Below are positions 1 through 54,908 of a stretch of 64,000 bases of DNA, in pieces; position 1 is the stretch's first letter; every line of letters begins with the position of its first letter. Position numbers and translations under genes: made by a program. Below the pieces are notes generated by a model. It ran no database searches, was not told where the DNA came from, and worked only from the letters and a program-made list of their open reading frames with translations. Source of the stretch: Acidobacteriota bacterium. GTDB lineage: Bacteria; Acidobacteriota; Aminicenantia; UBA2199. The stretch is taken from positions 1,256-65,255 of the forward strand of contig JAKLEC010000003.1 in assembly GCA_022711715.1 (NCBI GenBank). Direction: 5' to 3'.

Positions 1-285
1 AAGCGCATGGACATCAACGTTACCCGCGCCATCATCAGGGCCGTCCTCAACGGCGAGCTGGACAAGGCCGGCACGGCCGAGGACAAGACCTTCCACATCA
101 ACATCCCCGTCGCCTGCCCGGGCGTGCCCGCTGAGATCCTGCAGCCGCGCAACACCTGGAAAGACCCCGAGGCTTTCGCCGCCCGGGCGCAGAAGCTGGC
201 CAACGAGTTCAGCGCCCAGTTCGACAAGGTCTACGGCAGCAAGGACCTGCCCGAGGCGGTGCGCCGCCAGTGCCCGGGGAAGTAA
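1..285 (+). CDS. pckA: Phosphoenolpyruvate carboxykinase (ATP), C-terminal fragment; the gene begins upstream of the window
   Basis: The frame is open from base 1. The tail ...ILQPRNTWKDPEAFAARAQKLANEF... matches the conserved C-terminus of ATP-dependent PckA. Confidence 0.85.
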   Translation, partial: KRMDINVTRAIIRAVLNGELDKAGTAEDKTFHINIPVACPGVPAEILQPRNTWKDPEAFAARAQKLANEFSAQFDKVYGSKDLPEAVRRQCPGK

Positions 286-288
286 CCA

Positions 289-519
289 AAGCGAGCTCCC
301 GTGACGCGTAACGCGTGACGCGTGACGCGAAACAACCAGTCGCGAGCCAGGACGAGGGGCGATTATTCTAGGCGATCAACTTCCGCTGAGGAACGCCATC
401 GCAAAAACGAAAACACGAACCATATAGGGGTTCAAAAACTGATTATATTGCGTAATGGTTCATTTCATTGCGGCACCATGTCACGCGTTACGCGTCACGC
501 GTCACGATAGCCCGTTCCG
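289..519. repeat. Inverted heptamer-array hairpin element, copy 1 (GTRACGC class)
   Basis: Left arm 301-329 is GTGACGC GTAACGC GTGACGC GTGACGC G. Right arm 480-506 is the complementary heptamers. 300-326 pairs with 480-506 at 25 of 27 positions. The loop is about 150 nt. The element fills the convergent pckA/tsaD gap. Confidence 0.85.
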
Positions 520-521
520 TT

Positions 522-1559
522 TTATCGGTGCCTCTTGCTCTCGCGGAACGCGGCGCGCGAGTAGGCGTTGAGGCCCAGGTCGTCGTAGCGCTCGCCGGGG
601 AAAGCGGTGTAGCGTTCGTAGCCCAGCCAGGCGATCATGGCGGCGTTGTCGGTGCAGTAGCGGGGCTCGGGCAGATAGAGAGGCAGCCCGCGCGCGCCGC
701 AGGCCTCGGCGAAGCGGCGGCGCAGCAGCGAGTTGCGGCTGACCCCGCCGGAAACGATCAGCGAGCGCACGCCCAGGAAATCGGCCGCCTCGAGGGTCTT
801 GCCCGCCAGGTACTCGACGAGCGACTCCAGGAACGAGGCCAGCAGATCGTGGAAATCGCGGCCCTGCGGCTGGATGTTCCGCTCGCGCGCCAGCCGCAGC
901 AGCGCCGCCTTGTAGCCGGAGAACGAGAAATCCTCGCCGCCGTCGCTCATGCGCGGGCGGGTGAAGCGGAAGCGCCGCGGATCGCCCCGGGCGTAGAGCT
1001 CGTCGAGCAACGGCCCCCCGGGGTAGCCCAAGCCGAAGTGCTTGGCCACCTTGTCCATGACCTCGCCGGCGGCGTCGTCGCGGGTCTTGGCGACCACCCG
1101 GCCGCTGAACTTGGCTTCCTGGTGGAACAGCGTCGTGTGCCCGCCCGACACCACCAGCGCCAGCAGCGGGTAGGCGATGCCGCCGTGGCTGATGAAAGAG
1201 GCCTCGACGTGGGCGGCGACGTGGTCGACGGCCGCCAGCGGCAGCCCGCGGGCCAGGGCCAGCCCTTTGGCGAAGGAGAGGCCCACGAGCAGCGAGCCGA
1301 CCAGGCCCGGCCCCTGTGTCACCGCCAGCAGCCCGATGTCGTCGAGGCTCACGCCGGACCGGCACAGCGCCTCTTGGCAGAGGAGTTCGATGGCCTCGTA
1401 GTGGGTGCGTGCGGCGATCTCCGGCACGATCCCGCCGAAGGGGGCGTGCAGCTCGATCTGCGACTTGATCGCCTCGGAGAGCACGGCGTTCCTCTTCCCT
1501 CTCTCGATGACGGCCACGGCCGTCTCATCGCACGAGGATTCAATGCCCAGGACGTACAA
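522..1559 (-). CDS. tsaD: tRNA N6-adenosine threonylcarbamoyltransferase TsaD (Kae1/Gcp family)
   Basis: N-terminus MYVLGIESSCDETAVAV... and full-length family similarity. TTG start with GGAGG 4 nt upstream. Confidence 0.95.
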   Translation of the reverse strand: MYVLGIESSCDETAVAVIERGKRNAVLSEAIKSQIELHAPFGGIVPEIAARTHYEAIELLCQEALCRSGVSLDDIGLLAVTQGPGLVGSLLVGLSFAKGLALARGLPLAAVDHVAAHVEASFISHGGIAYPLLALVVSGGHTTLFHQEAKFSGRVVAKTRDDAAGEVMDKVAKHFGLGYPGGPLLDELYARGDPRRFRFTRPRMSDGGEDFSFSGYKAALLRLARERNIQPQGRDFHDLLASFLESLVEYLAGKTLEAADFLGVRSLIVSGGVSRNSLLRRRFAEACGARGLPLYLPEPRYCTDNAAMIAWLGYERYTAFPGERYDDLGLNAYSRAAFRESKRHR

Positions 1560-1575
1560 GCGCCCTCCTTCATGT

Positions 1576-1604
1576 CATCATAACAAACCAGAGCTCACCG
1601 GACA
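1576..1604 (-). promoter_or_regulatory. Sigma70-like promoter candidate for tsaD (TTGTCC-17-TATGAT)
   Basis: On the minus strand, TTGTCC is at 1604-1599 and TATGAT at 1581-1576, with a 17-nt spacer. It lies about 15 nt upstream of the tsaD RBS. Confidence 0.4.
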
Positions 1605-1617
1605 ATCAAAAAGAACA

Positions 1618-1800
1618 ATTCGAGCTATCGTGACGCGTAACGCGTGACGCGTGACGCGTAAAGCCATTACCGGAAGCCACAACGAACAAATTACAAAAAG
1701 AGTACTTTTTATAACTTTCCCAGAAAGCAATCCTTGAAGGCTTCAGTTTCGGCTGATGCTCGCTGCTCGTCACGCGTCACGCGTTACGCGTCACGAAGGC
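1618..1800. repeat. Inverted heptamer-array hairpin element, copy 2 (GTRACGC class)
   Basis: 1629-1655 (CGTGACGCGTAACGCGTGACGCGTGAC) is the exact reverse complement of 1769-1795, giving a perfect 27-bp stem. The loop is about 110 nt and AT-richer. Confidence 0.9.
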
Positions 1801-1803
1801 CTG

Positions 1804-2352
1804 TTACCAGTCGCGATAGTACGTCCCGTCCAGCGCCTTCTTTTCCGAGTCGCAGTAAATGTCCCAGACGTTTTCCCCTCCCCAGTCGCGGCTGCCGAGC
1901 TTGTCCTGGAAGGAGCGCAACCCCCAGTCGCCCGTGCCGGTGATGGGGTCGGTGGGGATGTGGCGCAGGAATTTCATCACTCGGGTCTTGTTCTTCTTGT
2001 CCTTGTACTCGATGCCCTTGACCAGGTCCTCCAGCTTGAGCGGATAGCCGTAGGTGTCCTCGTCGACCTCGATCTTGTTCTCGCCCACGAACTTCTTGTA
2101 ATCGTCGATGGCCGTGCGCAGGAGGCGCAGCGCCCGGCGCAGTTCGATCTCCTTGGTGCGCTGGAAGGCGTTGTGGGCCAGGGGGATGGCGGCGGCGGCC
2201 AGGATGCCGATGATCACCGTGACCGTCAGCACCTCGATGAGGGTGAAGCCGCGCGCCGGCGCGCCGGCGCCGGAAGCGGCGGACGCGGCGCGGTTCCGCG
2301 ACGGCATGGCGGCGCCTGGGGACGAGCTAGCGGCCCCCGCCGTGCGGGTCAT
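1804..2352 (-). CDS. Prepilin-type N-terminal cleavage/methylation domain protein (GspG-like pseudopilin)
   Basis: Motif ...ARG/FTLIEVLTVTVIIGILAAAAIP... is followed by a GspG-like globular domain. The start is uncertain: 2352 overlaps the pnp stop, and Met16 at 2307 is the alternative. Confidence 0.8.
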   Translation of the reverse strand: MTRTAGAASSSPGAAMPSRNRAASAASGAGAPARGFTLIEVLTVTVIIGILAAAAIPLAHNAFQRTKEIELRRALRLLRTAIDDYKKFVGENKIEVDEDTYGYPLKLEDLVKGIEYKDKKNKTRVMKFLRHIPTDPITGTGDWGLRSFQDKLGSRDWGGENVWDIYCDSEKKALDGTYYRDW

Positions 2353-4411
2353 CCTCCAATACCTTGTGGCTGAGCTTCATCTTGTTGTCGCGGTCCAGGG
2401 AAAGCACCTTGACGTCGATCACCTGACCCAGCTTGTACTCCTGGCGCGGATCGCGGATGCGCTTGTGCGAGATCTCCGACACGTGCAGCAGGCCGGTGAC
2501 GCCGGGCATGATCTCCACGAACAGGCCGTAGTCCTCGATGCGGTTGATCTTGCCGGTGTACACCTTGTCGACTTCGGGCGAGCCGGTCAGCTCCTCGATG
2601 CGGGCCATGACCTTCTCGCCGAGCTCGCGGTTGGCGGCGGCGATGGAGACCTTGCCGTCGTCCTCGGCGTTGATTTTCACGTTGTAGGTGGCCACGAGCT
2701 CCTTGATGGTCTTGCCGCCCGGGCCGATCAGGTCGCGAATCTTGTCGACGGGGATCATCATGGTGAGGATCACCGGAGCGTACTCGGACAGCTTGGCTGC
2801 CGGCGCCGGGATCGCCGCCTTCATCTTGGCCAGGATGGACTTGTAGGCCGTGGTGGCGTCGTCGATGGTGCGGCGGATGACCTCGTCGGTCAGGCCGCCG
2901 ATCTTGATGTCGAGCTGGATGGCGGTGATGCCTTTCTCGGTGCCGGCGACCTTGAAGTCCATGTCGCCGAAGTGGTCCTCGTAACCGGCGATGTCGGTGA
3001 GCACGGCGAAGTCGTCGCCCTCCTTGACCAGCCCCATGGCGATGCCGGCCACCGGCGCCTTGATGGGCACGCCGGCGTTCATCAGCGCCAGGGTGCCGCC
3101 GCAGACCGTGGCCATGGACGAGGAACCGTTCGACTCCAGGATGTCGGAGACGACGCGGATGGTATAGGGGAAGGTCTCGTTGTCGGGGATCATCAGCTTC
3201 AGTGCCTTCTCGGCCAGGTTACCGTGGCCGATCTCGCGACGGCCGGCGCCGCGCAGGAAGCTGACCTCGCCCACGGAGAAGGGCGGGAAGTTATAGTGCA
3301 GCAGGAACTTCTTCTTGGGCTCCTCGCCGCTGAGCAGGTCGAGGCGCTGGGCGTCGTCCTCGGAGCCCAGGGTGACCGTGGACAGCGACTGCGTCTCGCC
3401 GCGGGTGAAGACGGCCGAGCCATGCACGCGCGGCAGGACGCCCAGCTCGATGGTGATCGGGCGGATCTCGGTGAAGGCGCGGTTGTCGGTACGCCGCTTT
3501 TCCTTCAGCAGCGTCGCACGGAAGACCTCCGCCTCGACGTTCTCGAACGCACCCTTGAGGCTGGCAAGCTCGGATGGATCGTCCTTGCCCTTCTGGATCT
3601 CCTCCATGATGGCCTTGATCTTCAGGCGGCGCAGGACGCGGTCCTGGGTGAAGATGGCGTCGCGGATCTGCGCCGAGAAGCGGGCGCGGATGTCAGCGGT
3701 CAGGGCATCGGTCCCGGGCTTGGCCGCCGGCATGACCTTGTCGGGGTTGACCAGCTCCTTCTGCGCCCGGCAGATGCGGGCGATCACTTCCTTGGCCCGG
3801 CGCAGCCCCTCCAGGAACACCTGGTCGGAAAACTGGTTGCCGCCGGCCTCGAGCATGACCACCTCGGTCTCGGTGCCGGCCACCAGCACGATCATGTCCA
3901 GCTCCTTGCGCATGTCCAGGCCGGGGTTGACGAAATACTGCCCCGCCTTCCAGCCGATCTTGACCGCGGCCAGCGGCGTGGTGAAGGGGATGGTCGAGGA
4001 GAGCAGGGCGGCGGAGGCGCCGATGATGCCCATGGCGTCGTAGTCGATGCTGAAGTCGGCCGACAGCAGCATGGCGATCACCTGCGTGTCGTTGTGGTAG
4101 TTCTCGGGGAACAGCGGCCGGATGGGGCGGTCGATCAGCCGGGAGAGGAGCACTTCCTTCTCCGAGGGCTTGCCCTCGCGCTTGAAGAAGCCGCCGGGGA
4201 TCTTGCCGGCCGAATAGGTGTTCTCGCGGAAGTCGACCATCAGCGGCAGGAAGTCCTGGCCCTCCTTCTCCTCGTCGCGCATGTTGGCGGTGACCAGGAT
4301 CATGTTATCCTTGTAGGTCAGCAGGGCCGAGCCGTTGGACTGGCGCGCCCAGCGGTGGATGTCGATTTTCAGCGTGGAGCCCTCTATCGGGATCTCAATG
4401 GTTTTCTGCAT
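2327..4411 (-). CDS. pnp: Polyribonucleotide nucleotidyltransferase (PNPase)
   Basis: 694 aa with two RNase PH domains plus KH and S1 regions recognisable ([12 protein letters not shown]..., C-terminal S1). Confidence 0.97.
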
Positions 4412-4433
4412 GGTTGTCTCCTAGACGGGCGGA

Positions 4434-4703
4434 TTACTTGCGGAGTTCCAGTTCCTGGATGACCTTGACGTACTTGTCGTAGTCGGTGCGGCGCAGGTAG
4501 TTCAGCAGCTTCTTGCGCGTCGAGACCAGCGTCAGCAACCCCTTGCGCGAGTGGTTGTCCTTCTGGTGCGTCTTGAAATGCTCGGTCAGGTTGCGGATGC
4601 GCTCGGTCAGGACCGCGATCTGCACTTCCGACGAACCGGTGTCCTTCTCGTTTATCTGGAAGCGGCCGATCAGCTTCTGCTTGGTTTCCTTGGTAATGCT
4701 CAC
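4434..4703 (-). CDS. rpsO: 30S ribosomal protein S15
   Basis: (V)[15 protein letters not shown]...[13 protein letters not shown] start at 4703 preceded by GGAGG. The track ORF to 4769 is an upstream extension. Confidence 0.95.
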
Positions 4704-4737
4704 AAAGTCCTCCTGTGTTGATGCGAAGTTAGCCTGT

Positions 4738-4766
4738 ATTTTACCAGAAAACGGCTGCCGTGTAAA
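4738..4766 (-). promoter_or_regulatory. Sigma70-like promoter for rpsO-pnp (TTTACA-17-TAAAAT)
   Basis: On the minus strand, TTTACA is at 4766-4761 and TAAAAT at 4743-4738, with a 17-nt spacer. It lies about 35 nt upstream of the rpsO start. Confidence 0.5.
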
Positions 4767-4790
4767 CAAGCGGGGAGAAAAACGCTTCGA

Positions 4791-6320
4791 TCAGCCCTCG
4801 GCCTGGAATCCGGCGAAGTCGATGTTGTGCTCATCCAGGGTGGTGCCCAGTACCTTGCCCACCCGCGAGAGGGACAGGCTGTAGTCGATCAGCGACTTCA
4901 GCTCGGCGATGCGGGCGTTGGCGAAGTCGCGCTGGTACTGCAGGACCTGGTAGTTGGTCGAGAGGCCGACGGCCAGCTTTTTCTGCTCGGCGGCCAGCTT
5001 CTGTTCGGCCAGCTCGCGCGAGATCCGCGTGGCTTCGACGAGCTTGGCGTTGGTCTCCAGGTCCATGATGATCTGCTTGACCTCGGAATAGACGGTGCTC
5101 TCGGTCTTTTTCAGCGTCAGCAGCGACTGCTCCAGGTTCAGCCGCGCCTGGGCCAGGTCGGCGCGGGCCGAGGCGTTGACTACGGGGACGGAGAGCTGCA
5201 GGCCGAGCGAATAGTTCTCGTACAGGCGCTTCAGCGCGTCGCGCAGCGCGTCGCTCATGCCGCCCCCGACCACGCCGGGGATAGGGATGCCGTTCTTCAG
5301 GGGCATGCCGCTCAGGCCCTGGGTGTAGTAGGACGCCGTCAGCTGCAGGTCAGGCAGGGTCTGGTTGCGGTAGTAGCGCACGTCGATGTTCCTGCTCTTG
5401 AGGTCGAGGCGCACCTGCTCGATGTCGGGCCGCTTGGCCAGGGCCTTCTCGAGGAATTCGTTGAAGTCGGCCTGCCGGGGCCGGAATAGCGGCTGGTCGG
5501 CGGGGACGATCGTCTCCGGCGCCTGGCTGGTGTTCAGGATGCGGCGCAGGTTTTCCTCGTAGGCCTGGATCTGGCTGCGCGCCTGCAGCACCTCGCCCTC
5601 GCGGGCGGCGACCTCGGCCTGGGCGGTGAGGATGTCCATGGGCGCCGAGACGCCGACCCGGACCTGGGTCTCGTTCTGCTTCAGCAGGTCCTTGGCCAGC
5701 TGCAGCGACTTCTCCTTGACCTCCAGGTTCTGGTGGGAATAGACCAGGTTCCAGTAGGCCTCCTCGGTCTGGTAGATGAGATCGATCACCTGCTGGCGCA
5801 GGGTGGCCAGCGACTTGTCCTGGTTGTGGCGGGCGAGGATGATGCTCCGGCGGGTGGCGGTCAGCCCGAAGTTTTTGAGCAGGGGCTGGGACAGGGTGAA
5901 CTGCAGCTGGGAGAAGTAGCGGGGATTGATGTACACGTCGAGCGAGTTGGTCGAGTAGCGGGAGTTCTGCAGCGCGACGTCGAGGCTGCCGCCGATCGGC
6001 AGCTGCTGCTTCAGGCTGAAGCCGTAGGAGACCGACTCGGGCTTCTCGACATCGACGCCGGTGACGATGGAAGCGTTGGGCGTCGTCTGCGACGTCTTGC
6101 GGAAGCTGAACCCCACGCTGGGGATAAAGACGGCCCGGCTCTTGCGCAGCAGCGCCTTGGCGATCTCGGGATTGGCCATCTCGATCTGCAGGTCGAGGTT
6201 GTTCTTCAGGGCCTGGTTGATGACCTCCTCGAGGCTCAGGGACTTGACCGGCCGCTCCTGCGCCGGGCCCAGCAGGGCCAAGAGATGGGCCAGCACGACC
6301 ATCGCGATCATTTTCTTCAT
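4791..6320 (-). CDS. TolC-family outer membrane efflux protein
   Basis: Signal peptide MKKMIAMVVLAHLLALLGPAQE, two repeated OEP halves and coiled-coil-rich sequence. Start chosen at the ATG at 6320, which has an upstream GGAGG. Confidence 0.85.
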   Translation of the reverse strand: MKKMIAMVVLAHLLALLGPAQERPVKSLSLEEVINQALKNNLDLQIEMANPEIAKALLRKSRAVFIPSVGFSFRKTSQTTPNASIVTGVDVEKPESVSYGFSLKQQLPIGGSLDVALQNSRYSTNSLDVYINPRYFSQLQFTLSQPLLKNFGLTATRRSIILARHNQDKSLATLRQQVIDLIYQTEEAYWNLVYSHQNLEVKEKSLQLAKDLLKQNETQVRVGVSAPMDILTAQAEVAAREGEVLQARSQIQAYEENLRRILNTSQAPETIVPADQPLFRPRQADFNEFLEKALAKRPDIEQVRLDLKSRNIDVRYYRNQTLPDLQLTASYYTQGLSGMPLKNGIPIPGVVGGGMSDALRDALKRLYENYSLGLQLSVPVVNASARADLAQARLNLEQSLLTLKKTESTVYSEVKQIIMDLETNAKLVEATRISRELAEQKLAAEQKKLAVGLSTNYQVLQYQRDFANARIAELKSLIDYSLSLSRVGKVLGTTLDEHNIDFAGFQAEG

Positions 6321-6420
6321 CGGACGCCTCCAGCGTAGGAAATCCATACGGAAATAGAACAAAAAAGTTCACCGGGGCTTGCAGGATGCCCCGATATTGG
6401 CGGAAAATTTCAGCGAATGC

Positions 6421-7401
6421 CTACGCCAGGCCCTTTTCGGCCAGCCATTCGTCGTTGTAGATGGTGCTCAGGTAGCGGGAGGCGCCGTCGGGGAAGACGG
6501 TGACGATGCGCGCCGGCCCGTCGAGGCGCTTGGCCAGTTGCCGCACTCCCCACAGGGCCGCGCCGCTCGACCCCCCCACCAGGAGTCCTTCGCGGCGGGC
6601 GATCTCGCGGGCGGTGAGGAACGCCTCGCGATCGGTCACCTGCAGCATGTCGTCGATGTGGGTGAATACGGCGCAGCCGATGAGGAACTCGTCGCCCAGG
6701 CCCTCGATCAGGTAGGGGCCGGGCTTGACCAGTTTCCGGTGATGGAAATAGTCGTGGAAGACCGATCCCAGGGGATCGACGGCGATCACCCGGATGCGCG
6801 GGTCCTTCTCCTTCAGGAAGCGGGCGGTCCCGCCGACGGTGCCGCCGGTGCCGATGCCGGCGACGAAATAATCGATGCGCCCCTCCATCTGCTCCCAGAT
6901 CTCCGGGCCGGTCCCCCGGTAGTGGGCCTCGTTGTTGTCGAGGTTGTTGTGCTGGTCGGGGAAGAAGCAATTGGGGGTCTCCCGGGCCAGGCGCGGCGTG
7001 ATGTTGTTGTAACTGTCGGGATGCTCGGGCGGCAGGGTGCTGTCCACCATGTGGATCTCGACGCCGAGAGCCCGGAGCTGATCCAGCTTCTCGCGGCTGA
7101 TGCGGTCGCGCACCACCACCTTCAGGCGGTACCCCTTTTGCAGGGCGATCAGGGCCAGGCCGAGGGCGGTGTTTCCCGAGGAGTTCTCGATGATCAGGTC
7201 GCCCGGCTTGATCTTTCCCTCCCGTTCGGCCTTCTCGATCATGTAGCGGGCGATGCGGTCCTTGGAGCTGCCCATGGGATTGAGGAATTCCAGCTTGGCG
7301 TAGACCTCGCCGGGGATGTCCTGGGCGATCCGGTTCAGCCGCACCAGCGGCGTGTGGCCGATGACGTCGATGACGCTCTGACAGCAGCGGGCTTTATTCA
7401 T
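6421..7401 (-). CDS. PLP-dependent cysteine synthase / cystathionine beta-synthase family protein
   Basis: GHTPLVRLNR...LEFLNPMGSSKDR (PLP lysine motif)...GTGGT loop. 326 aa with no CBS pair. Confidence 0.85.
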   Translation of the reverse strand: MNKARCCQSVIDVIGHTPLVRLNRIAQDIPGEVYAKLEFLNPMGSSKDRIARYMIEKAEREGKIKPGDLIIENSSGNTALGLALIALQKGYRLKVVVRDRISREKLDQLRALGVEIHMVDSTLPPEHPDSYNNITPRLARETPNCFFPDQHNNLDNNEAHYRGTGPEIWEQMEGRIDYFVAGIGTGGTVGGTARFLKEKDPRIRVIAVDPLGSVFHDYFHHRKLVKPGPYLIEGLGDEFLIGCAVFTHIDDMLQVTDREAFLTAREIARREGLLVGGSSGAALWGVRQLAKRLDGPARIVTVFPDGASRYLSTIYNDEWLAEKGLA

Positions 7402-7442
7402 CGTGACCTCGGGAGGAACGCGAAAATCAAGCGGAAGGGAGG

Positions 7443-7471
7443 ATTTTACTCCAAAAGCAGGGACGAGTAAA
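7443..7471 (-). promoter_or_regulatory. Sigma70-like promoter candidate for the cysteine-synthase-family gene (TTTACT-17-TAAAAT)
   Basis: On the minus strand, TTTACT is at 7471-7466 and TAAAAT at 7448-7443, with a 17-nt spacer. It directly abuts repeat copy 3. Confidence 0.4.
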
Positions 7472-7480
7472 GATGAACCG

Positions 7481-7730
7481 AACTATCGTGACGCGTAACG
7501 CGTGACGCGTGACGAGTAACAGCAATGAAACGATACGGCGTTCAATCGCCGATGACCAACCGTGCTTCCCCGGACGATCAAGCAAGCGGCAGCAGAAAAC
7601 TATGATAAATTGAATGTCCCTGGTTCAATCGGAGCGGAAAAGTCCAATTCGCCGGCTCGGCTTTCCCGTACGCCCTATGCCGTACGCCAAGCTCCTTTCT
7701 TATTACCCGCGCGTTACGCGTCACGATTGC
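7481..7730. repeat. Inverted heptamer-array hairpin element, copy 3 (GTRACGC class)
   Basis: 7485-7502 (ATCGTGACGCGTAACGCG) is the exact reverse complement of 7710-7727. The left array continues to about 7520. The loop of about 190 nt contains CGTACGC CCTATGC CGTACGC heptamers at 7667-7687. Confidence 0.85.
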
Positions 7731-8053
7731 TCATCCTTCAACAAAGCTATGAGCTTGCGATACCCGGGATCGGCCTGCACAATCTCGATCCCCAGCCCCA
7801 CCGGCGCCTCCTCCCCCTGGACATCCGGCTTCTGTCTTTTCCACACCACCAGGCCGGTGACGGAGTAGATGTCGTCGCCCGAGGCAAGGAGGATCCGCAG
7901 CCGGCTGCGCCGGCGGATGACCCGGGTGGTGGCGACGCACATCCCGCGGCGCGAAATGTTCACCGTCACCCCCATCTGGTCCAGGCCGCGGCGGCTGATG
8001 TCGACCAGCAGGCTTTTCCTGACCCTTGGCTCCTTGCGTTTCCTTGTTTTCAT
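7721..8053 (-). CDS. PilZ domain protein (putative c-di-GMP receptor)
   Basis: 110 aa with RxxxR-like RVRKS and D/NxSxxG-like DISRRG / NISRRGMCV motifs. Confidence 0.75.
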   Translation of the reverse strand: MKTRKRKEPRVRKSLLVDISRRGLDQMGVTVNISRRGMCVATTRVIRRRSRLRILLASGDDIYSVTGLVVWKRQKPDVQGEEAPVGLGIEIVQADPGYRKLIALLKDEQS

Positions 8054-8295
8054 TCTTTTAATGTAATTATAGTATGAACCATTTCGTTAAAGCAAAAGCA
8101 ATGCATGTGCCAACCGGGTGGTGGATGGGATCGTCCAGCCAAGCCGGACAGAATTGGCCGTGTTTAGGCGGTTTATTTTTCCTAATTTTTATTCAAGGAT
8201 GGAATTTGAAAAATAAATTTGACAATTTTTTGTCGTTTCGAGTGTGTATTTTTTTTACTTTTATTACATCCAAGAAAAATTCTAGAAAAATTAAG

Positions 8296-8324
8296 TTGAC
8301 GGCAGGGGAAAGAAATGCTATATT
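8296..8324 (+). promoter_or_regulatory. Sigma70-like promoter for the SPFH operon (TTGACG-17-TATATT)
   Basis: TTGACG at 8296-8301 and TATATT at 8319-8324, inside the AT-rich island. GGAGG RBS lies before the ATG at 8361. Confidence 0.5.
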
Positions 8325-8360
8325 TATGATATCATTTCGATAGCACAAGAGGAGGAACTA

Positions 8361-9257
8361 ATGATAACCGAAAAGAAAGGCGTATCGTTCAACGGCTGGG
8401 CGGTCATCGGTCTGCATATCCTGCTGATCGCGGCCATTGTTTGGATTTTTGCCTCCGGAATGAGCTTCATCACCATGACGTTGCCGAAGATCGTGCTCGT
8501 GATCGTCCTGCTGGCGACCGTGGCGGTCATCCTTCCCCCCGGCTACTTCACCCTGCAGCCCAACGAGGCCAAGGTGCTGGTGCTGTTCGGCAAGTACAAG
8601 GGAACCGTATCCAAAGACGGCTTCCACTGGACCAACCCTCTGGCCCTGGCCCAGCCCCGCGGACGCTACACCGTCTCGCGCCGCATCCGCAACTTCGAGG
8701 TCGAGAAGCTGAAGGTCAACGACAAACGCGGCAACCCCATTGAGATCGCCGCCGTGGTGGTGTGGCGGGTGGTCGACACGGCCCACGCCCTGTTCGACGT
8801 CGACCATTACGAGCACTACGTCAAGATCCAGAGCGACGCCGCCCTGCGCCACCTGGCCAACTGCTACCCCTACGACCACGGCGAGGAGGAGGAGGAGATC
8901 ACGCTGCGCAGCGGCATGGAGGAAGTGGCCCTGGTGCTGAAAAAGGAGCTGCAGGAGCGGCTGCAGAAGGCCGGCGTCCAGGTCGAGGAGACCCGCCTCA
9001 CCCACCTGGCCTACGCCCCGGAGATCGCCAACGCCATGCTGCGCCGGCAGCAGGCCGAGGCCATCATCGCCGCCCGGCGCAAGATCGTCCACGGCGCCGT
9101 CTCCATGGTCGAGATGGCGCTGGAGGACCTGAAAACCAAGAACGTCGTCGACCTCGACGAGGAGCGCAAGGCGGCCATGGTCAGCAACCTGCTCGTCGTC
9201 TTGTGCGGCGAGGCCGAGGCCCAGCCGGTGATCAACGCCGGCACGCTGTACAAATAA
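8361..9257 (+). CDS. SPFH/band-7 (stomatin/prohibitin-like) membrane protein
   Basis: Two N-terminal TM helices, then an SPFH core (...NFEVEKLKVNDKRGNPIEIAAVVVWRVVD...). Confidence 0.9.
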   Translation: MITEKKGVSFNGWAVIGLHILLIAAIVWIFASGMSFITMTLPKIVLVIVLLATVAVILPPGYFTLQPNEAKVLVLFGKYKGTVSKDGFHWTNPLALAQPRGRYTVSRRIRNFEVEKLKVNDKRGNPIEIAAVVVWRVVDTAHALFDVDHYEHYVKIQSDAALRHLANCYPYDHGEEEEEITLRSGMEEVALVLKKELQERLQKAGVQVEETRLTHLAYAPEIANAMLRRQQAEAIIAARRKIVHGAVSMVEMALEDLKTKNVVDLDEERKAAMVSNLLVVLCGEAEAQPVINAGTLYK

Positions 9258-9275
9258 GCGCCGGGGCACGGGGCC

Positions 9276-9509
9276 ATGGCGGCGAAAAAATCGTTCCTGC
9301 TGCGCCTCAGCCAGGAGATGTGGGAGGAGCTCGAACGCTGGGCCGCGGACGACTTCCGCAGCGTCAACGGCCAGATCGAGTCCATCCTGCACGAGGCCAT
9401 CTCCCGGCGGCGGCGGCAGGCTTCGCCGCCGGCCCCATTGACCGGCGTGCCGGCCGCGGCCGAAGGCGACCCGTCGCCCGCGACGCCGGCGGAAGGGGAG
9501 GAGAAATGA
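9276..9509 (+). CDS. Arc/MetJ-type ribbon-helix-helix DNA-binding protein
   Basis: KKSFLLRLSQEMWEELERWAADDFRSVNGQIESILHEAI fits the Arc-like RHH pattern. The tail is disordered and Pro/Ala-rich. Confidence 0.7.
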   Translation: MAAKKSFLLRLSQEMWEELERWAADDFRSVNGQIESILHEAISRRRRQASPPAPLTGVPAAAEGDPSPATPAEGEEK

Positions 9510-9583
9510 AGAAGATCATTTTCATCGTCCTGTTGTTCATCCTGGCCGCGGCCCTGGTATGGGCCGGGCCGGTTATGTCGTAG
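9506..9583 (+). CDS. Candidate 25-aa hydrophobic micropeptide (MKKIIFIVLLFILAAALVWAGPVMS)
   Basis: ATGA start/stop overlap with the RHH gene, GGAGGAG just upstream, and a single predicted TM helix. No homology evidence. Confidence 0.3.
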   Translation: MKKIIFIVLLFILAAALVWAGPVMS

Positions 9584-9611
9584 GCCGAGCGCGGAACCGA
9601 GGAGGAGGATC

Positions 9612-9836
9612 ATGAAAAGCGGAACCTGCCCCCTGTGCGGGGCGAAGGAGATATACAGCGGCGCCGACGTGAGCGGCAAGTCGGGGATGCACTACAGCAA
9701 CACCATCCCGGTGTCGGCGTTCTGCGCCGCCGTGCTGGACAACTACGTGTGCGGCCAGTGCGGATACGTGCAAAGCTTCATCGCCAAGGAGAAACACCTG
9801 GCCACGATCAAGAAGAAGTGGCCGCTGGTTTTTTAG
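9612..9836 (+). CDS. Small zinc-ribbon protein (two CxxC pairs), function unknown
   Basis: CPLCG...CGQCG pairs. RBS GGAGGAGGA lies upstream of the ATG. Confidence 0.55.
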   Translation: MKSGTCPLCGAKEIYSGADVSGKSGMHYSNTIPVSAFCAAVLDNYVCGQCGYVQSFIAKEKHLATIKKKWPLVF

Positions 9837-9871
9837 CAAGGCCTAAGGCTCAGGGTTCAAGGCTTAGGGAA
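9837..9871. repeat. Tandem heptamer tract (CAAGGCC TAAGGCT CAGGGTT CAAGGCT TAGGGAA)
   Basis: Five YARGGYY heptamers begin right after the zinc-ribbon stop codon. A degenerate complementary tract lies around 9900-9937. Confidence 0.6.
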
Positions 9872-9979
9872 GAAAACCGGCAAAAACGCATTTCACCTTG
9901 AAACATGCCTGCGACCGTCAGACCCTGGCCGCGGGGGCATTTATAGCGCCGGATCGCATTCTTTTTGCAGGAATGAATT

Positions 9980-10055
9980 GGGGTGAGTGACGGGACTTGA
10001 ACCCGCAGCGGTCAGATCCACAGTCTGATACTCTACCATTGAGCTACACTCACCG
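9980..10055 (-). tRNA. tRNA-His (anticodon GTG), with encoded G-1 and CCA
   Basis: The hand-folded cloverleaf has acceptor GTGAGTG/CACTCAC, anticodon arm TCAGA-CTGTGGA-TCTGA, T-arm GCGGGTTCAAGTCCCGT, an extra 5' G and discriminator C. Confidence 0.9.
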
Positions 10056-10065
10056 CCCGGCCTCA

Positions 10066-10094
10066 TTCTATAGTATAAGCCCGCTCCTGTCAAC
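10066..10094 (-). promoter_or_regulatory. Sigma70-like promoter for tRNA-His (TTGACA-17-TAGAAT)
   Basis: On the minus strand, TTGACA is at 10094-10089 and TAGAAT at 10071-10066, about 10 nt before the tRNA 5' end. Confidence 0.45.
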
Positions 10095-10192
10095 GCGCGC
10101 CGGGAACGCGGCCGGGCCGTGAATGCGGGCGGGCGCTGGATTTCCACGGCGGAACACGCTATAATCGGAATCCCAAAGCGAGGAACCGCACC

Positions 10193-11305
10193 ATGACAAA
10201 AGCCAAGGTCGCCATACTGAGAACCAGGCCTGAAACGGCGCTCGACGACTACATCCGCCTGTTCGAGCTGGGCGGCGGCCCCGGCGCCATGAAAAAGGGG
10301 GCCACCACCATCATCAAGGACAACATTTCCTGGCATTACCCCTTCCCCTCGGCCAATACCACCCCCTGGCAGCTGGAAGGCACGGTCCTGGCCCTGAAGA
10401 AGCACGGCTTCGCCGACATCGCCTGCGTGCAGAACAAGACCGAAGTGACCAACGCCTTCAAGGGCGAGGACCTGAACAACTACAAGCCCATCTTCCGCGA
10501 CCATAACCTCAAGGTCCTGTTCAACTTCCGCGAGGAAGACATGAAATGGGTGGCCTACAAGCCCCAGGCGAGGATGCTGGCCCTGGACAAGATCTACGGC
10601 GACGAGCTGCGCATCCCCGACTACTTCATCGGCAAGAACATGGTCCACCTGCCGACGGTCAAGTGCCACATCTACACCACCACCACCGGCGCCATGAAGA
10701 ACGCCTTCGGCGGCCTGCTCAACCATAAGCGCCACCAGACCCACACCCACATCCACGAGACGCTGGTCGACCTGCTGGCCATCCAGCGCGAGATCCATCC
10801 CGGCCTGTTCTGCATGATGGACGGCACCACCGCCGGCAACGGCCCGGGGCCGCGGGTGATGCACCCGGTGGAGAAGAACGTCATCCTGGCCTCGGCCGAC
10901 CAGGTCGCCGTCGACGCCGTGGCGGCCAGGCTGATGGGCTTCGATCCCATGGCCATCCGCTACATCCGCCTGGCCCACGAGACCGGCCTGGGCACGGGGC
11001 GCCCCGAGGAGATCGAGATCGTGGGCGACGTCGAGGCAGCCAGGGAGAGCTGGAACTTCCAGGTGGGGTTCTGCTTCCACAAGGCCGTGGGCTGGGTGAC
11101 CTGGTTCGGCCCCACCCGCTTCCTGCAGAAGGCCATGACCCGGCCGCCCATCCTCTACCTCGGCAACTTCTACTCCTATTTCTACCACGACGTTCTGCAC
11201 TGGCCCTTCAAGGAGAGCAAGATCTATCGCACCTGGCTGAAAAAATCCCCCTGGGGCAAGTTGTTCCAGCAGTATCTGGACAAGGGCTCACTCAGGTCGA
11301 AATAG
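10193..11305 (+). CDS. DUF362-family protein
   Basis: 370 aa. HLPTVKCHIYTTTTGAMKNAFGGLL and ASADQVAVDAVAARLMGFDP are typical of DUF362. Confidence 0.7.
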   Translation: MTKAKVAILRTRPETALDDYIRLFELGGGPGAMKKGATTIIKDNISWHYPFPSANTTPWQLEGTVLALKKHGFADIACVQNKTEVTNAFKGEDLNNYKPIFRDHNLKVLFNFREEDMKWVAYKPQARMLALDKIYGDELRIPDYFIGKNMVHLPTVKCHIYTTTTGAMKNAFGGLLNHKRHQTHTHIHETLVDLLAIQREIHPGLFCMMDGTTAGNGPGPRVMHPVEKNVILASADQVAVDAVAARLMGFDPMAIRYIRLAHETGLGTGRPEEIEIVGDVEAARESWNFQVGFCFHKAVGWVTWFGPTRFLQKAMTRPPILYLGNFYSYFYHDVLHWPFKESKIYRTWLKKSPWGKLFQQYLDKGSLRSK

Positions 11306-11365
11306 CAACGGAACCCGGCATACGGCGTACGACAGGTTTTTATTGGATGGGTTTTTCGCCGTGGC

Positions 11366-13213
11366 CTACCGCTCCCCTGCCTGCTCCAGCCGGCGCACGG
11401 AGGCGATCAGCGGATCGGCCTGCCGGCGGAAGGAGCGCCATTCTTCATAGGTGAGGAGCCGACGGATTGGAAGCAGGAACCGCTCTCCATTCAAATCCAG
11501 CATTTGCGCCGAAAGCCATAACAGCTTGAACTGCTCCACTTGCCGCGGCGGGTCGAACGCCTGCCGGTCCCTCTCCCCCGGCGAGAAAGTCCCATAGAAA
11601 CGGCGCAATTCCCGTCGCGTTTCAGCCCCCAGCCGGCCCCGGGGGATGCAGATCGTCAGATTGGGGTCGAAATAAACAGGGAGCAGATGGGCAAGGAAGC
11701 GCCCGGGCGCCGCCAGGAAACGGGGGGTATAGTGGGTCATGGCGACCACATCGATTCGGTAGCGGTCCATGAAGCGCCTCACGGCCGCGTTATCGCCGCT
11801 TTCCAAGGCGATGAAAAAGGCGCGCAGGTCGGCGCTGCGGGCATTGATCAGCGCGGCATGGCCGTACCAGTAGGGGGTCATTCCCCGGGCCAGCCAGGTG
11901 ACGGCGCTGCACAGTCCCAGGTGGTTGCTCGCCAGGTTGCCGCGGCAGCCGAGCGCATTCAGGATCTCGACCTCACGGACCTGCTCAGCCGGCAGGACGG
12001 AAGCGATCCCGATGCCGGCGGGCAGGAACTCTTCCGCCAATTCCAGGCGCCAGGCGCGATTGATCCGGCCCACCAGGCGCGGGGAGAGCAGGAACAAGCG
12101 CTCCAGCATCAGGAAAATGCAGAGTCCGGCCAGCAGCGCCTGCCCCCACAACCGGCGGCGTGGGCGCCCGGGGCGCAGCCGGGGGTCGGGAGCCAGGGCC
12201 GAGGCGACCATGAGAAAGATCGGCAGGAACGGCAGGGCGCGCTGGTAGAACAGCGCCGGCCCCCCTACCAGCAGCAGCACCCCGAAGAACCACAGCCGGC
12301 CGGAACGGGCAGCCTGGCGCCGCCAGGGGCGGGCGGCCAGCAACGCCGCGGAGATCAAAAAAAAGAGATGGGTGTTCACGCTGACCAGGGCTGCGCTCGT
12401 CGAACGCATCGAACCGGCGGCATATTCGACACGGATCATGTTCACCGGCAAGCTGAGCAAGGCCCGCCACCCCAGCGGATTCACCAGCCAGCCAAGACCG
12501 ATGACGCCCAAATAGAGCGGCCGGCTCGGGACATTCATCGCCCGGCCTCCAGGCCGGGGCAGGAGGGTCCTGGCGTCATCCGCGATGAACAGGGCCGAAA
12601 ACAGCCCGAGACCGAGGCCATAATAGAAAAACAGGGGGTGGCTGTTCACCCAGAGGATTTCCACGGCGACCAGGGCGGCAAGCGTTCCCCCATGAGTTGA
12701 TGGCCGGCGGGCCGGCGCCAAGAGGACCAGCCAGAGAACCAGGAAGGCATAGTTGAACAGGTCGGGACGCAGGACAACCATCCCGGCCATGGCCAGCACC
12801 AGAGCGGCCGCGGCGCTCAGCAACCACATGGGGTCCCTTCGCCGGCGGAAGATCACCGACGTCAGCATAGCTAAAAAAGCCATGAACACGGCGATGCGCA
12901 GCATGTTCAAGCCCAGGAACGATCCGCTCCTGAACGCGAGCCGGAACAACGTGCCGGGGAAAAGGTTCGGATAGATCGCCAGAATGGGTTCCCCCGTCGA
13001 GATGGCGATGGGATCGCTGGTCAAGGCCCGCCCATGCTGCCAGAAATATTCGGCGCCGCGCATGTGCCACCAGCAATCCATGCTGTTGAAGGGAGTGAGG
13101 GAAAAATACAGCGCGGAAAATAGGAAGCAAATGGCCAGGACGACGGCGAGGCGTCGATCACCAGCAGGGCCGGCGGAGCAGCCGAGCGCCTGCGCTTTTT
13201 CCGGCTTGGTCAT
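11366..13213 (-). CDS. Large polytopic membrane protein with a C-terminal soluble domain (possible GT-C-like glycosyltransferase)
   Basis: 615 aa with more than 10 hydrophobic segments. No specific family recognised. Confidence 0.5.
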   Translation of the reverse strand: MTKPEKAQALGCSAGPAGDRRLAVVLAICFLFSALYFSLTPFNSMDCWWHMRGAEYFWQHGRALTSDPIAISTGEPILAIYPNLFPGTLFRLAFRSGSFLGLNMLRIAVFMAFLAMLTSVIFRRRRDPMWLLSAAAALVLAMAGMVVLRPDLFNYAFLVLWLVLLAPARRPSTHGGTLAALVAVEILWVNSHPLFFYYGLGLGLFSALFIADDARTLLPRPGGRAMNVPSRPLYLGVIGLGWLVNPLGWRALLSLPVNMIRVEYAAGSMRSTSAALVSVNTHLFFLISAALLAARPWRRQAARSGRLWFFGVLLLVGGPALFYQRALPFLPIFLMVASALAPDPRLRPGRPRRRLWGQALLAGLCIFLMLERLFLLSPRLVGRINRAWRLELAEEFLPAGIGIASVLPAEQVREVEILNALGCRGNLASNHLGLCSAVTWLARGMTPYWYGHAALINARSADLRAFFIALESGDNAAVRRFMDRYRIDVVAMTHYTPRFLAAPGRFLAHLLPVYFDPNLTICIPRGRLGAETRRELRRFYGTFSPGERDRQAFDPPRQVEQFKLLWLSAQMLDLNGERFLLPIRRLLTYEEWRSFRRQADPLIASVRRLEQAGER

Positions 13214-13473
13214 GCCGTGCCATTATAAAGGCCGGCCCGGCGCGTGTCAAAGCCCAAACGAAGCGGGAAACATGCGGCTCGGCCTCCGCAGTTCGATGTT
13301 CAAGCTCCGATCAGGCGCCGGGCGCGAGTGGCAAGACCGAATGTTCGGGAGAACGACCGGGAATTGAAGCGATCCCCGGAGCCCTCCGCGGGATTTTTTG
13401 GACAAGGCCGGCCGCGGTCTGCCTGCGCGATCCGGCCCGGCGCCGCACGACTTCCGCCATGAAAGGGCGCGCG

Positions 13474-14337: not shown

Positions 14338-14569
14338 GACCCGATTATAGCACAACCCCAGGGCATGGCCCGCCGGGGCCACAAGGGTCACGATCGCCCA
14401 TCCCGGAGGCACCCATGGCGGAAAGGGCAGGCCGTCGGCTTGGCATGCGACGTTTCAGGAGTCCCGGTTCCGCGGGTCCCGTGGCCGCGAATCCCACCCG
14501 CCCCATCGATCATTAAATCCATGGCCTGGCCACCGTATGGAAGGCCGCTGCCACGACAAGGTGATTGGC

Positions 14570-16108: not shown

Positions 16109-16228
16109 CGCGGAAATGATAAGGGAAAGCGCATTCGTTTTCAATGACGGCGCGGTGGGGGCGCTTTGTTCTTTCCTGTGGAACGGGGCGCGGCGATCGG
16201 AAACGGCCGGATACAGAGCGGCCCCGCC

Positions 16229-16257
16229 TTGCCGGCGGAGTCGATAAACGCTATAAT
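16229..16257 (+). promoter_or_regulatory. Sigma70-like promoter for tRNA-Arg (TTGCCG-17-TATAAT)
   Basis: TTGCCG at 16229-16234 and TATAAT at 16252-16257, 13 nt before the tRNA 5' end. Confidence 0.5.
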
Positions 16258-16270
16258 ATCGGCCGCCTAT

Positions 16271-16343
16271 GCGCCCGTAGCTCAAAGGATAGAGCGGCAG
16301 CCTTCGAAGCTGTGCGTTGGGAGTTCGAGTCTCTCCGGGCGTA
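16271..16343 (+). tRNA. tRNA-Arg (anticodon TCG)
   Basis: Acceptor GCGCCCG/CGGGCGT, D-arm GCTC-AAAGGATA-GAGC, anticodon arm GCAGC-CTTCGAA-GCTGT, T-arm GGGAG-TTCGAGT-CTCTC. CCA is not encoded. Confidence 0.9.
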
Positions 16344-16402
16344 GGCCGCCCATGCGCTTTTTCGTTTCCCTGAGATAACCGCGCCGTGAATCCTATTTCC
16401 AT

Positions 16403-16759: not shown

Positions 16760-16781
16760 TACCGTCTACCGGTTCGATTAA

Positions 16782-16975: not shown

Positions 16976-17012
16976 CCACTCATGCTATAATCGCTCCGGA
17001 TCGCGGCCACAT

Positions 17013-54135: not shown

Positions 54136-54171
54136 TTGTTCCTTGAAACGCTCCATGAAGAGAAACAAACC

Positions 54172-54895: not shown

Positions 54896-54908
54896 CTGCG
54901 ATCCCTAG

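Follow-up and report, generated by a model that had tools for sequence, protein, structure and literature searches.

A repeat element between pckA and tsaD

The stretch of DNA considered here, hereafter called the window, comprises 64,000 nucleotides from an Acidobacteriota bacterium (Aminicenantia, UBA2199; assembly GCA_022711715.1, contig JAKLEC010000003.1, positions 1,256 to 65,255 of the forward strand). Close to its left end, two convergent genes, pckA and tsaD, the products of which were identified by Pfam as PEPCK_ATP and TsaD on a near-identical contig, are separated by a gap (window 289–519) that is filled by one copy of a genuine intergenic repeat element. This copy, element 1, is built of two inverted arrays of GTRACGC heptads (R being A or G) which enclose a loop, and it ends 1–2 nt short of the tsaD stop codon (522–524, minus strand). 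It is read here, tentatively, as a member of an insertion family with heptad-repeat ends, on the basis of its relatives in the window and in other genomes.

A preliminary description of the window, made from the letters alone, had proposed arms at 301–329 and 480–506 around an AT-richer loop of about 150 nt. This architecture has been borne out, with the left arm at 301–328 and a loop of 150 nt which has a GC content of 47% versus 62% for the window. The two arms are complementary at 86% over 28–35 nt, with one perfect register of 20 nt, and they are paired in the predicted RNA fold (−94.4 kcal/mol, z = −5.61 relative to 200 dinucleotide shuffles). Three other copies announced at 1618–1800, 7481–7730 and 16782–16975 (elements 2, 3 and 4; Table 1) have likewise been recovered, with heptamer arms that pair and with no counterpart in shuffled sequence. 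Indeed, the window contains 15 matches to (GTRACGC)3 with at most two mismatches, versus none in 100 dinucleotide shuffles. With a looser pattern of GTRA arrays, 9 matches are obtained versus 0.02 in shuffled sequence, and Tandem Repeats Finder (TRF) reports a period of 7 with 3.9–4.4 copies in every arm.

The four heptamer-armed copies measure 184–252 bp each, with loops of 106–200 nt. Their ends, of about 40 nt, share flank and array, the flank consensus AACGAGCTATC being common to most element ends in the window; their loops are mutually unrelated, similarity being limited to the shared heptad arrays. Element 2 (1618–1800) has arms of 29 nt which are 100% complementary and paired in the predicted RNA fold (−96.1 kcal/mol, z = −8.75, 200 dinucleotide shuffles), and element 4 (16782–16975) has arms of 49 nt which are 82% complementary. 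In total, the 64 kb contain four heptamer-armed and two hexamer-armed copies, plus a degenerate one.

Regarding their position, one end of each element lies 0–25 nt from a stop codon, in agreement with the preliminary description. The PilZ gene takes its TGA stop codon (7721–7723, minus strand) from element 3 itself, where this codon belongs to the GTGA that opens the right arm. Promoter-like sites had also been claimed just beyond the ends, and they are indeed present at 1605–1577 (−), 7471–7443 (−) and 16983–16991. The promoter scan locates such sites 10–13 nt beyond the element ends that face gene starts; the last of the three, TGCTATAAT upstream of uvrA, was read by eye and is not called by the scan (no −35 match). 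The promoter-like site of tsaD is kept in relatives that lack element 2. The genes which flank the window elements are housekeeping genes.

Searches against known RNA families returned two tRNAs and nothing else over the whole window at the Rfam gathering score, and no match to the elements at E ≤ 1 over window 1–18000. The tRNA genes are located at 9982–10053 (−) and 16271–16343 (+), the second one about 440 nt upstream of element 4. A text search of the literature with 14-nt strings of arm sequence found no match in searchable papers. The initial claim of an unrecognized family holds with respect to Rfam and has to be tempered by precedents among intergenic heptanucleotide repeats (PMC4679880, PMC4692102, PMC2700814).

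The window shows no enrichment in canonical intrinsic terminators (19 versus 17.1 expected), and the elements do not have the make-up of intrinsic (Rho-independent) terminators, their loops being 106–200 nt long and their right arms being followed by no T-run; the terminator scan of the window called none at the element arms. Small hairpins followed by a T-rich run are present inside the loops of elements 1 and 3. Elsewhere, at window 58440–58475, an A-run precedes a G+C-rich hairpin (ggccaggtcgcgggacctggcc) which, read on the minus strand, has the classical make-up of an intrinsic terminator; this genome is therefore not devoid of canonical ones. Across 20 hairpins, the G/A choices of the two arms did not show a consistent in-register match. 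In the single case of element 2, comparison of the window with the 90% relative shows a G/A pattern displaced in each of the two arms, from heptad 2 to heptad 3, with pairing kept, which is too little to count as covariation.

Distribution across bacteria

The family is not confined to this genome, as a scan of one genome per species recovered further copies, with exact (GTRACGC)3 in at least 119 stretches. With hosts taken as labelled in the records, GTRA-N3 arrays or the end module occur in more than 10 phyla, the labels including Aminicenantes, Acidobacteria, Nitrospirae, Chloroflexi, Planctomycetota, Bacteroidetes, Acetothermia and Desulfobacterales, and at many of these loci an array, a loop and an inverted array succeed one another between genes. 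A viral origin was rejected, as just 9 matches were obtained in 2.9 million viral contigs.

Metagenome-assembled genomes (MAGs) labelled Vulcanimicrobiota or Synergistia, of about 35% GC, are very rich in (GTRACGC)3. Loci L005 to L119 (contigs JBEHWO, JBEHWP, DAIOEN and CAYSLJ), which bear one or the other of these labels, have near-identical element subfamilies in common, and these MAGs look like a single lineage with inconsistent taxonomic labels, hereafter the AT-rich lineage. Examples of AT-rich subfamilies are ...ctgaggtgagcataaataat... beside arrays and ATGACCGGTTCGGTCAC ahead of right arms. Some GTGACGC/GCGTCAC arrays, of up to 10 units, apparently lie within coding sequence (Verrucomicrobia, Dehalococcoidia and Streptomyces; L011 4540–4600, L030 3620–3680 and L060 5452–5521). 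They would encode peptide repeats of seven residues and may be a phenomenon distinct from the intergenic modules.

A constrained GTRA core and a conserved end module

The statistics on core, length and position given below were obtained from about 1.2 Mb of array-selected sequence, as opposed to whole genomes. At the related loci, arrays of at least three tandem copies number 448 for period 7 (224 without the seed unit) versus 20–32 for periods 6, 8 and 9. GTGA or GTAA is part of 41 of the 106 different heptamer units, versus 11 expected, and nearly all those present at several loci carry one of these tetranucleotides (e.g., GTGATGC, GTGAGTA, GTGAAAA, GTAATGC and GTGAGTC), AAATTCC being the main exception. 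Variation within arrays, expressed as the share of units which differ from the majority of their own array at G, T, R, A, N, N and N, amounts to 0.011, 0.017, 0.194, 0.007, 0.098, 0.087 and 0.082 for positions 1–7 (228 arrays) and, when GTRACGC arrays are removed, to 0.02, 0.02, 0.108, 0.013, 0.167, 0.149 and 0.127 (83 arrays). At position 3 of GTRA heptads, the variation is mostly from G to A.

The constrained core is GTRA at a 7-nt pitch and the ACGCGT palindrome is incidental. This palindrome, which had been pointed out in every heptamer, is not conserved and was ruled out as the functional site: arrays with other spacer triplets (GTGATGC, GTGAGTA, GTGAAAA, GTGACGA and others) are devoid of it, GTRA being constant. 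A pure array of stop codons was rejected as well, as G1 is constrained like T-R-A and NTGA with N other than G is rare: among arrays whose consensus unit contains TGA, 117 have GTGA and 20 have A/C/T-TGA, and TAG is avoided. The constraint on G1, the rarity of non-G NTGA and the avoidance of TAG support that stop codons are used and yet do not explain the motif.

Arrays have a length mode of four GTRA units (164 arrays, versus 108 with three and 40 with five), in low-GC and high-GC genomes alike, these counts being partly shaped by ascertainment since loci were chosen by a GTRACGC seed pattern. The flanks are also common to genomes of 35% and 62% GC, with C at −1 in 96% and 82% of cases, respectively, and T at −2; in both GC classes, the inner flank of the end module is GCG followed by purines.

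Other heptads were encountered, and many distinct ones form inverted pairs in these genomes. AAATTCC-type hairpins, with a constant AAAT and a variable triplet, recur in Aminicenantes-like genomes (L003 3330–3480; L220 2230–2420, in the gap orthologous to that of element 2; L059 6200–6350; L083 1270–1410). A third type, ACGG followed by three variable bases (CCGT on the opposite arm), forms inverted arrays and is also present inside the loops of GTRA elements (L219 2991–3154; L079 1985–2016; window 7666–7688).

Polarity and position in the AT-rich lineage

Polarity and position were analyzed in 489 kb of the AT-rich lineage, in which open reading frames (ORFs) make up 86% of the sequence. Intergenic arrays account for 235 of 259 (91%), although intergenic DNA makes up 14% of the sequence. 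Arrays always point away from the nearest gene, toward which they turn the 5' side of their GTRA strand. On their outer side, the median distance is 8 nt to stop codons and 58 nt to start codons, while 84–151 nt separate the inner side from the next gene, and gene starts are faced by 118 arrays versus 97 for gene stops. Adjacent arrays within 300 nt are convergent in 53 cases, divergent in 2 and in tandem in 14 + 19. At gene-length spacing the ratio of orientations flips to 46 versus 13, which is expected if arrays bracket intergenic gaps.

The stop codons in all three frames are a real property of the arrays, and genes make use of it: 22 of 84 upstream ORFs end on the TGA or TAA of heptad 1, 2 or 3 (offsets 1, 8 and 15), all three frames being represented, and another 4 of the 84 stop on other in-array stop codons.

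In this lineage, loops have a median length of 34 nt, and the spacer triplets of convergent arms match in 5 of 53 pairs versus 8 expected from random pairing of arms. The arms being no more complementary than random, the long hairpin is a feature of certain lineages and not a defining one. Hence, the long hairpin of the preliminary description stands for the window (z = −5.61 and −8.75) and falls as a trait of the whole family.

Gain, loss and replacement among relatives

The window shows 99.99% identity to a contig from the Joint Genome Institute (JGI) and, over 17.4 kb, 98.6% identity to GCA_016294905.1. This second genome retains element 1, with 5 substitutions in the loop, and its entire pilin-tsaD gap is a divergent allele containing a GTAAAAG/CTTTTAC-armed hairpin and CCGTACG repeats. 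This allele occupies L121 15598–15835, which corresponds to window 1586–1803, with extra substitutions in window 1500–1900; the elevated divergence of its flanks suggests an import via homologous recombination. Another patch, with about 50 differences from L121 in 200 nt (window 8400–8600, within a Band_7 gene), may be another recombination tract. In strain L122, element 3 has exactly two heptads (14 nt) fewer.

More distant relatives, ordered by the identity of their TsaD, differ at both gaps which flank tsaD. At 90% (L219), the pilin-tsaD gap contains an ortholog of element 2 with near-identical arms and a loop of about 65–70% identity, and the tsaD-pckA gap contains an ACGG-N3/CCGT-armed hairpin. 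At 80% (L220), these gaps are occupied by an AAATTCC-armed hairpin beside a remnant right arm and by a 108-nt GTRACGA hairpin, respectively. At 79% (L222), a remnant right arm with a different upstream gene is found in the former, and the latter contains a GTRACGC element whose ends are homologous and whose loop cannot be aligned. Finally, at 71% (L130), the pilin-tsaD gap is reduced to the promoter region and the tsaD-pckA gap is empty, with the two stop codons 3 nt apart. L130 being syntenic with the window, its two tsaD-flanking gaps are the empty sites which the preliminary description had proposed to look for in relatives. Thus, at 79–99% identity, the same two gaps are occupied by GTRACGC, GTRACGA, GTAAAAG, ACGG-N3 or AAATTCC hairpins, or by single-arm remnants. 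As the pckA/tsaD gap of a relative is just 3 nt, the entire 236 nt of element 1 are new DNA, and the possibility that its ends are caps added to an old intergenic region has been ruled out. In a further relative, L221 (3646–5323), gene calling gives, for PEPCK, a fragment of 231 aa and, after it, an ORF of 310 aa without Pfam hit; the cause may be either an insertion in pckA or a fault of the assembly.

Similarly, orthologous gaps of the AT-rich lineage are filled or empty (81 nt versus 4 nt), carry differing arrays or contain nested copies. L009 is filled at a site where L119 is empty, and an orthologous array has four heptads in one and three in the other of L020 and L069. In addition, an element with the left end of element 3 (94% identity over 45–48 nt) and its CCGTACGCC repeats is located at a non-orthologous site in L115, where the neighboring gene again ends on the first TGA of the array. 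Only the subterminal parts are common to this element and element 3, and the CCGTACGCC repeats are also found in the L121 replacement allele.

Collectively, elements are gained, lost and replaced between relatives and arrays change by whole heptads, while the GTRA core, the 7-nt pitch, the preference for four units and the inward polarity are maintained as loops drift.

Other elements of the window

The features of the window are collected in Table 1. The hexamer-armed element at 54719–54894 lies directly 3' of the stop codon of a PatA_N-domain gene (54136–54714) and has an internal CTTTTAC array of 4.6 copies (54800–54831) just inside its right arm; an ORF called at 54886–55446 is spurious. 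The second hexamer-armed copy, situated from 63911 on between the CstA stop codon and the SMC promoter, is complete in the identical contig L124 (about 9690–9910), where it has an internal TCGTCAC array, likewise just inside its right arm, and a loop of 153 nt.

Table 1. Elements, arms, flanks and promoter-like sites of the window
Feature	Position	Strand	Description
Element 1, outer terminal flank	289–300	.	AAGCGAGCTCCC; starts 4 nt past the pckA stop codon (283–285)
Element 1, left arm	301–328	+	GTGACGC GTAACGC GTGACGC GTGACGC; 4 GTRACGC heptads
Element 1, loop	329–479	.	150 nt, unrelated to other loops
Element 1, right arm and outer flank	480–520	−	GTRA heptads at 480–506; flank GATAGCCCGTT
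Promoter-like site for tsaD	1577–1605	−	TTGTCC-17-TATGAT with TG; 13 nt outside element 2
Element 2, outer flank and left arm	1618–1661	+	Flank CGAGCTATC; 5 GTRA units
Element 2, loop	1662–1767	.	42% GC
Element 2, right arm and flank	1768–1800	−	Terminates 4 nt short of the pseudopilin stop codon (1804–1806)
Promoter-like site, cysteine-synthase-like gene	7443–7471	−	TTTACT-17-TAAAAT; 10 nt outside element 3
Element 3, outer flank and left arm	7481–7519	+	Flank GAACTATC; 5 GTRA units
Element 3, subterminal CCGTACGCC repeats	7666–7688	.	Inside the loop
Element 3, right arm and flank	7710–7732	−	2 heptads
Element 4, outer flank and left arm	16781–16829	+	Flank AAACGAGCATTC; inner heptads degenerate
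Element 4, right arm and outer flank	16924–16972	−	Flank GATAGGTCGTTT
Extended −10-like TGCTATAAT	16983–16991	+	Precedes uvrA, which starts at 17013; about 10 nt beyond the end of element 4
Hexamer-armed element	54719–54894	.	GTGATA/GTGGTA arms at 54728–54754 and 54858–54886
Degenerate CTTTTAC-type array (GTAAAAG on the − strand)	58385–58417	−	In another intergenic gap
Second hexamer-armed copy	63911–64000	.	GTGATA/GTGGTA type; interrupted by the window end

Comparison with known repeat systems

Intergenic heptanucleotide repeats are over-represented, some forming inverted pairs and some being common to several phyla (PMC4679880, PMC4692102, PMC2700814). The 7-nt long simple sequence repeats (LSSR) of prokaryotes, including the short tandemly repeated repetitive (STRR) sequences of cyanobacteria, resemble the present arrays as they are tandem, strongly intergenic heptanucleotides, with several heptamers per genome and whole-unit variation (Mrazek 2007 and Mazel 1990, as summarized in PMC4679880 and PMC4692102). 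The present arrays display the hallmarks of this class, with period-7 tandem copies above chance, an intergenic location and whole-unit polymorphism, and STRR-type heptamers are their nearest named relatives, as had been surmised. However, they are short (mode four) and have a constrained GTRA core, free spacers, inward pairs, defined flanks and hosts from non-cyanobacterial phyla. STRR units are CCCCAGT and others. Cyanobacterial STRR proper were rejected, the units found here being GTRACGC and similar ones and the hosts, judged by record labels and protein names, being Acidobacteriota or Aminicenantes-like bacteria and other MAGs, not heterocystous cyanobacteria.

TAACTGA repeats of Beggiatoaceae, Cyanobacteria and Bacteroidetes are also patchy across phyla, for which transfer was suggested with no known vehicle, and a protein-binding role has been proposed for them (PMC4679880). 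They are likewise intergenic heptamers carrying stop codons, with 2–6 copies per set (PMC4679880). Nearly all TAACTGA sets are direct repeats right upstream of start codons, related heptamers being rare (PMC4679880), whereas the arrays described here are polar pairs which abut stop codons and tolerate any spacer triplet. Intergenic heptamer arrays of 4–5 units have further been reported in Xanthomonas (GGGAATC), Nostoc (GGGGAYT) (PMC4692102) and Geobacter metallireducens (GGGACCG ×4 and MTYCTGA ×5) (PMC2700814). As here, some of them form inverted stem-loop pairs, and their length and sequence vary between close relatives. These units are, however, G-rich, have been read as quadruplex-forming or regulator sites and have neither a GTRA core nor a cross-phylum end module.

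Correia/NEMIS, ERIC and RUP are elements of the miniature inverted-repeat transposable element (MITE) or foldback type, and the inverted ends of the FB elements of Drosophila are made of short tandem repeats. Such elements are similarly small, non-coding, intergenic and multi-copy, with terminal inverted repeats, filled and empty sites and long hairpins. The present ones differ in that their interiors are unrelated, their ends are tandem heptads, their arms are not always complementary and, at the examined loci, neither a target duplication nor an autonomous partner was found. The REP unit is an imperfect palindrome of 20–40 nt headed by GTAG, associated with RAYT transposases. REP, BIME and REPIN sequences are also extragenic, at gene 3' ends and between operon genes, in inverted pairs and in many copies, with a conserved tetranucleotide heading the unit; this candidate was rejected as the unit here is a non-palindromic heptad array. 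The attC sites of integrons lie downstream of cassette ORFs, in arrays beside intI, and have an imperfect hairpin bounded by R''/R' core sites of the form RYYYAAC ... GTTRRRY, to which GCGTAAC and GTTACGC each match at only 6 of 7 positions; they were rejected too, the neighboring genes (pckA, tsaD, pnp, uvrA and smc) not being cassettes.

A different kind of likeness is provided by Omega (ParB) of plasmid pSM19035, a ribbon-helix-helix protein which binds as one dimer per 7-bp WATCACW heptad, in direct or inverted orientation (PMC9499535). The reverse complement of this heptad, WGTGATW, has the same GTGA core, and at least four contiguous heptads are required for full Omega activity (PMC9499535). 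In both systems, contiguous 7-bp units with a GTGA/TCAC core occur in either orientation and in numbers of about four or more, and the present arrays have, at the sequence level, what characterizes an Omega-type array, i.e., contiguous 7-bp units with a conserved core, at least 2–4 in number and direct or inverted. Nevertheless, Omega arrays are a few plasmid sites of 7–10 units which overlap par and copy-control promoters (PMC9499535), whereas the arrays likened to them here, on sequence alone, are dispersed in chromosomes, have about four units and do not have T at position 5. By analogy, Omega operators make it physically plausible that such arrays are read by a protein. Overall, the family belongs to the heptanucleotide-repeat class by composition and is MITE- or REP-like by behavior. 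No earlier description of its GTRA+3 rule, polar paired architecture and cross-phylum end module was found in the literature.

Nature of the elements

The explanation which we favor, although tentatively, is that of a family of non-autonomous insertions, of the foldback or MITE-like type, whose ends are heptad repeats; a MITE was among the roles initially suggested and is the best supported of that list. Like MITEs, the elements are small and non-coding, with terminal inverted repeats, multiple copies and filled and empty sites between relatives. An element of this family would be a non-coding unit of about 100–260 bp, each end of which would comprise a short outer flank, about four inward GTRA+NNN heptads and a purine-rich inner flank. 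In the lineage of the window, GTRACGC is present at both ends, which gives a foldback with a stem of 28–40 bp and an unconstrained loop. The heptad arrays may be the repeated binding or cleavage sites of a protein which mobilizes or maintains the ends. A putative array-reading protein, be it a factor of the host or an enzyme of mobilization, is indicated by the pitch of 7 nt, the mode of four units and a constraint that is ten-fold on GTRA. As a TGA or TAA is present in every heptad and the unit length, 7, cannot be divided by 3, all three frames are closed at each end, which would allow insertions at or within the last codons of a gene to be tolerated. Once transcribed, the stem may be a substrate for RNase III, a hairpin protecting 3' ends or a transcriptional insulator, by analogy with REP and Correia elements.

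Several observations weigh against an insertion family. Target-site duplications were not recognized at the four window copies, the empty sites of L130 being too diverged to fix the junctions; TTCGA is found near both ends of element 4 and is not symmetric. The transposase gene bounded by the same termini that might have been expected, or a recombinase gene, is absent from 13 pairs of inward-facing arrays 0.5–4 kb apart, and the sequences of 2,034 ORFs from array-bearing loci, read without a Pfam scan, revealed no recurrent transposase-like family; the families beside the arrays, recognized in the same manner, are ordinary ones (TPR, kinases, ABC, SDR, PilT and others). A classical MITE with a common interior was rejected, the loops of the window copies being unrelated. 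Moreover, arm conservation far exceeds that of loops, unlike what a decaying selfish insertion would show unless its ends are homogenized or selected, and the re-occupation of the same gaps across lineages could mean selection for occupancy and not insertion preference. Finally, the evidence base is about 1.2 Mb of array-selected sequence. Host-function readings stay alive because arms are conserved while loops decay and because the same gaps are re-occupied.

Among these, it is conceivable, if rather unlikely, that the arrays are gene-boundary signals maintained by the host and read in double-stranded DNA by a small protein, each subunit of which would bind one GTRA, with a spacing of 7 bp. 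The borders of transcription units would then be marked by polar arrays of about four sites, serving as roadblocks, insulators or nucleoid organizers, the hairpin being a by-product of facing arrays. Such a role would account for the strict 7-bp pitch, for units in which three bases are free and four are constrained, the third of these admitting R, for the preferred length of four units and for a convergent polarity which holds even when arms are not complementary. It is also consistent with gene starts being faced as often as stops (118 versus 97), with GTRA lying, in many cases, on the strand opposite to the mRNA strand of the neighboring gene, with arrays finishing just upstream of promoters and with arms being kept while loops drift and gaps are re-occupied. 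Omega heptads, with their requirement for at least four contiguous units for full activity, provide a precedent (PMC9499535). However, no mobilizing or binding protein was found, the syntenic relative L130 has no element at either site and sites are filled or empty between related genomes. In addition, the heptad types that close relatives have at one site, including non-GTRA ones (ACGG-N3 and AAATTCC), are too varied to be read by a single protein.

A function at the RNA level is unlikely. The stem would be a terminator or insulator, an RNase III site or a 3'-end stabilizer, and the UGA/UAA array would free ribosomes before they reach the stem. The high stability of the stems (−94 to −96 kcal/mol, z −5.6 to −8.8), a location invariably flanked by a stop codon and by the promoter that follows it, the lack of enrichment of canonical terminators (19 versus 17.1 expected), the actual use of the array stop codons and, in a single case, the concerted G/A shift of element 2 which keeps pairing all agree with this proposal. 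Conversely, no U-tract follows the stems, arms are mostly non-complementary in the AT-rich lineage, G1 is as constrained as the stop codon in a manner which a stop-codon role leaves unexplained, and, for half of the arrays, the sense strand of the neighboring gene reads UYAC in place of GURA.

Still more doubtful is a neutral origin, in which polymerase slippage would make the heptanucleotide repeats and template-switch "palindrome correction" would keep the arms alike, with no function. According to the accounts summarized in PMC4679880 and PMC4692102, the long simple repeats of many prokaryotes are most often heptanucleotides, for which an origin by slippage was proposed; the gain and loss of whole heptads and the many different heptads in inverted pairs observed here would fit with it. 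Slippage is nonetheless difficult to reconcile with a variability about ten-fold lower in GTRA than in the three spacer bases, a length mode at four units in place of a monotonic decay, a strict polarity (53 versus 2) and an end module and flanks common to genomes of 35% and 62% GC from different phyla. The processing stems of rRNA precursors likewise bound intervening RNA. That the loop encodes a small RNA or a peptide, with the arms being a processing stem only, is nevertheless very improbable: loops of 100–200 nt are indeed bounded by stems, with small hairpins and T-rich runs in those of elements 1 and 3, yet they are unrelated between copies and drift toward randomness in relatives, have no Rfam hit at E ≤ 1 and shorten to a median of 34 nt in the AT-rich lineage.

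A broader proposal, to which we attach a low probability, is that of a cross-phylum "4+3 heptad code", in which polar arrays of about four units, each made of a constrained tetranucleotide and three free bases, would be read with a pitch of 7 bp or 7 nt by a dedicated, putative protein family. The tetranucleotide would be GTRA here and possibly ACGG or AAAT in sister families. Candidate readers would be a ribbon-helix-helix-like DNA binder or an HUH-type single-strand nuclease, which would place and maintain the modules at gene boundaries.

Significance

Slippage is the only general explanation so far for the excess of heptanucleotides in bacteria, and STRR, TAACTGA and similar repeats have no established function or mechanism. 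The elements described here provide testable handles, namely a four-base core, a length of four units, an inward polarity, an end module present in unrelated phyla and turnover at orthologous sites. If the "4+3 heptad code" is true, the heptanucleotide excess would gain a molecular cause other than slippage. If an array-reading protein exists, the elements would represent a new kind of mobile or boundary element, and the use by genes of these organisms of stop codons belonging to the repeat could be accounted for as well. For genome annotation, the elements account for puzzling gaps of 100–300 bp in Aminicenantes-like and other uncultured lineages, as well as for short C-terminal differences between orthologs in these lineages.

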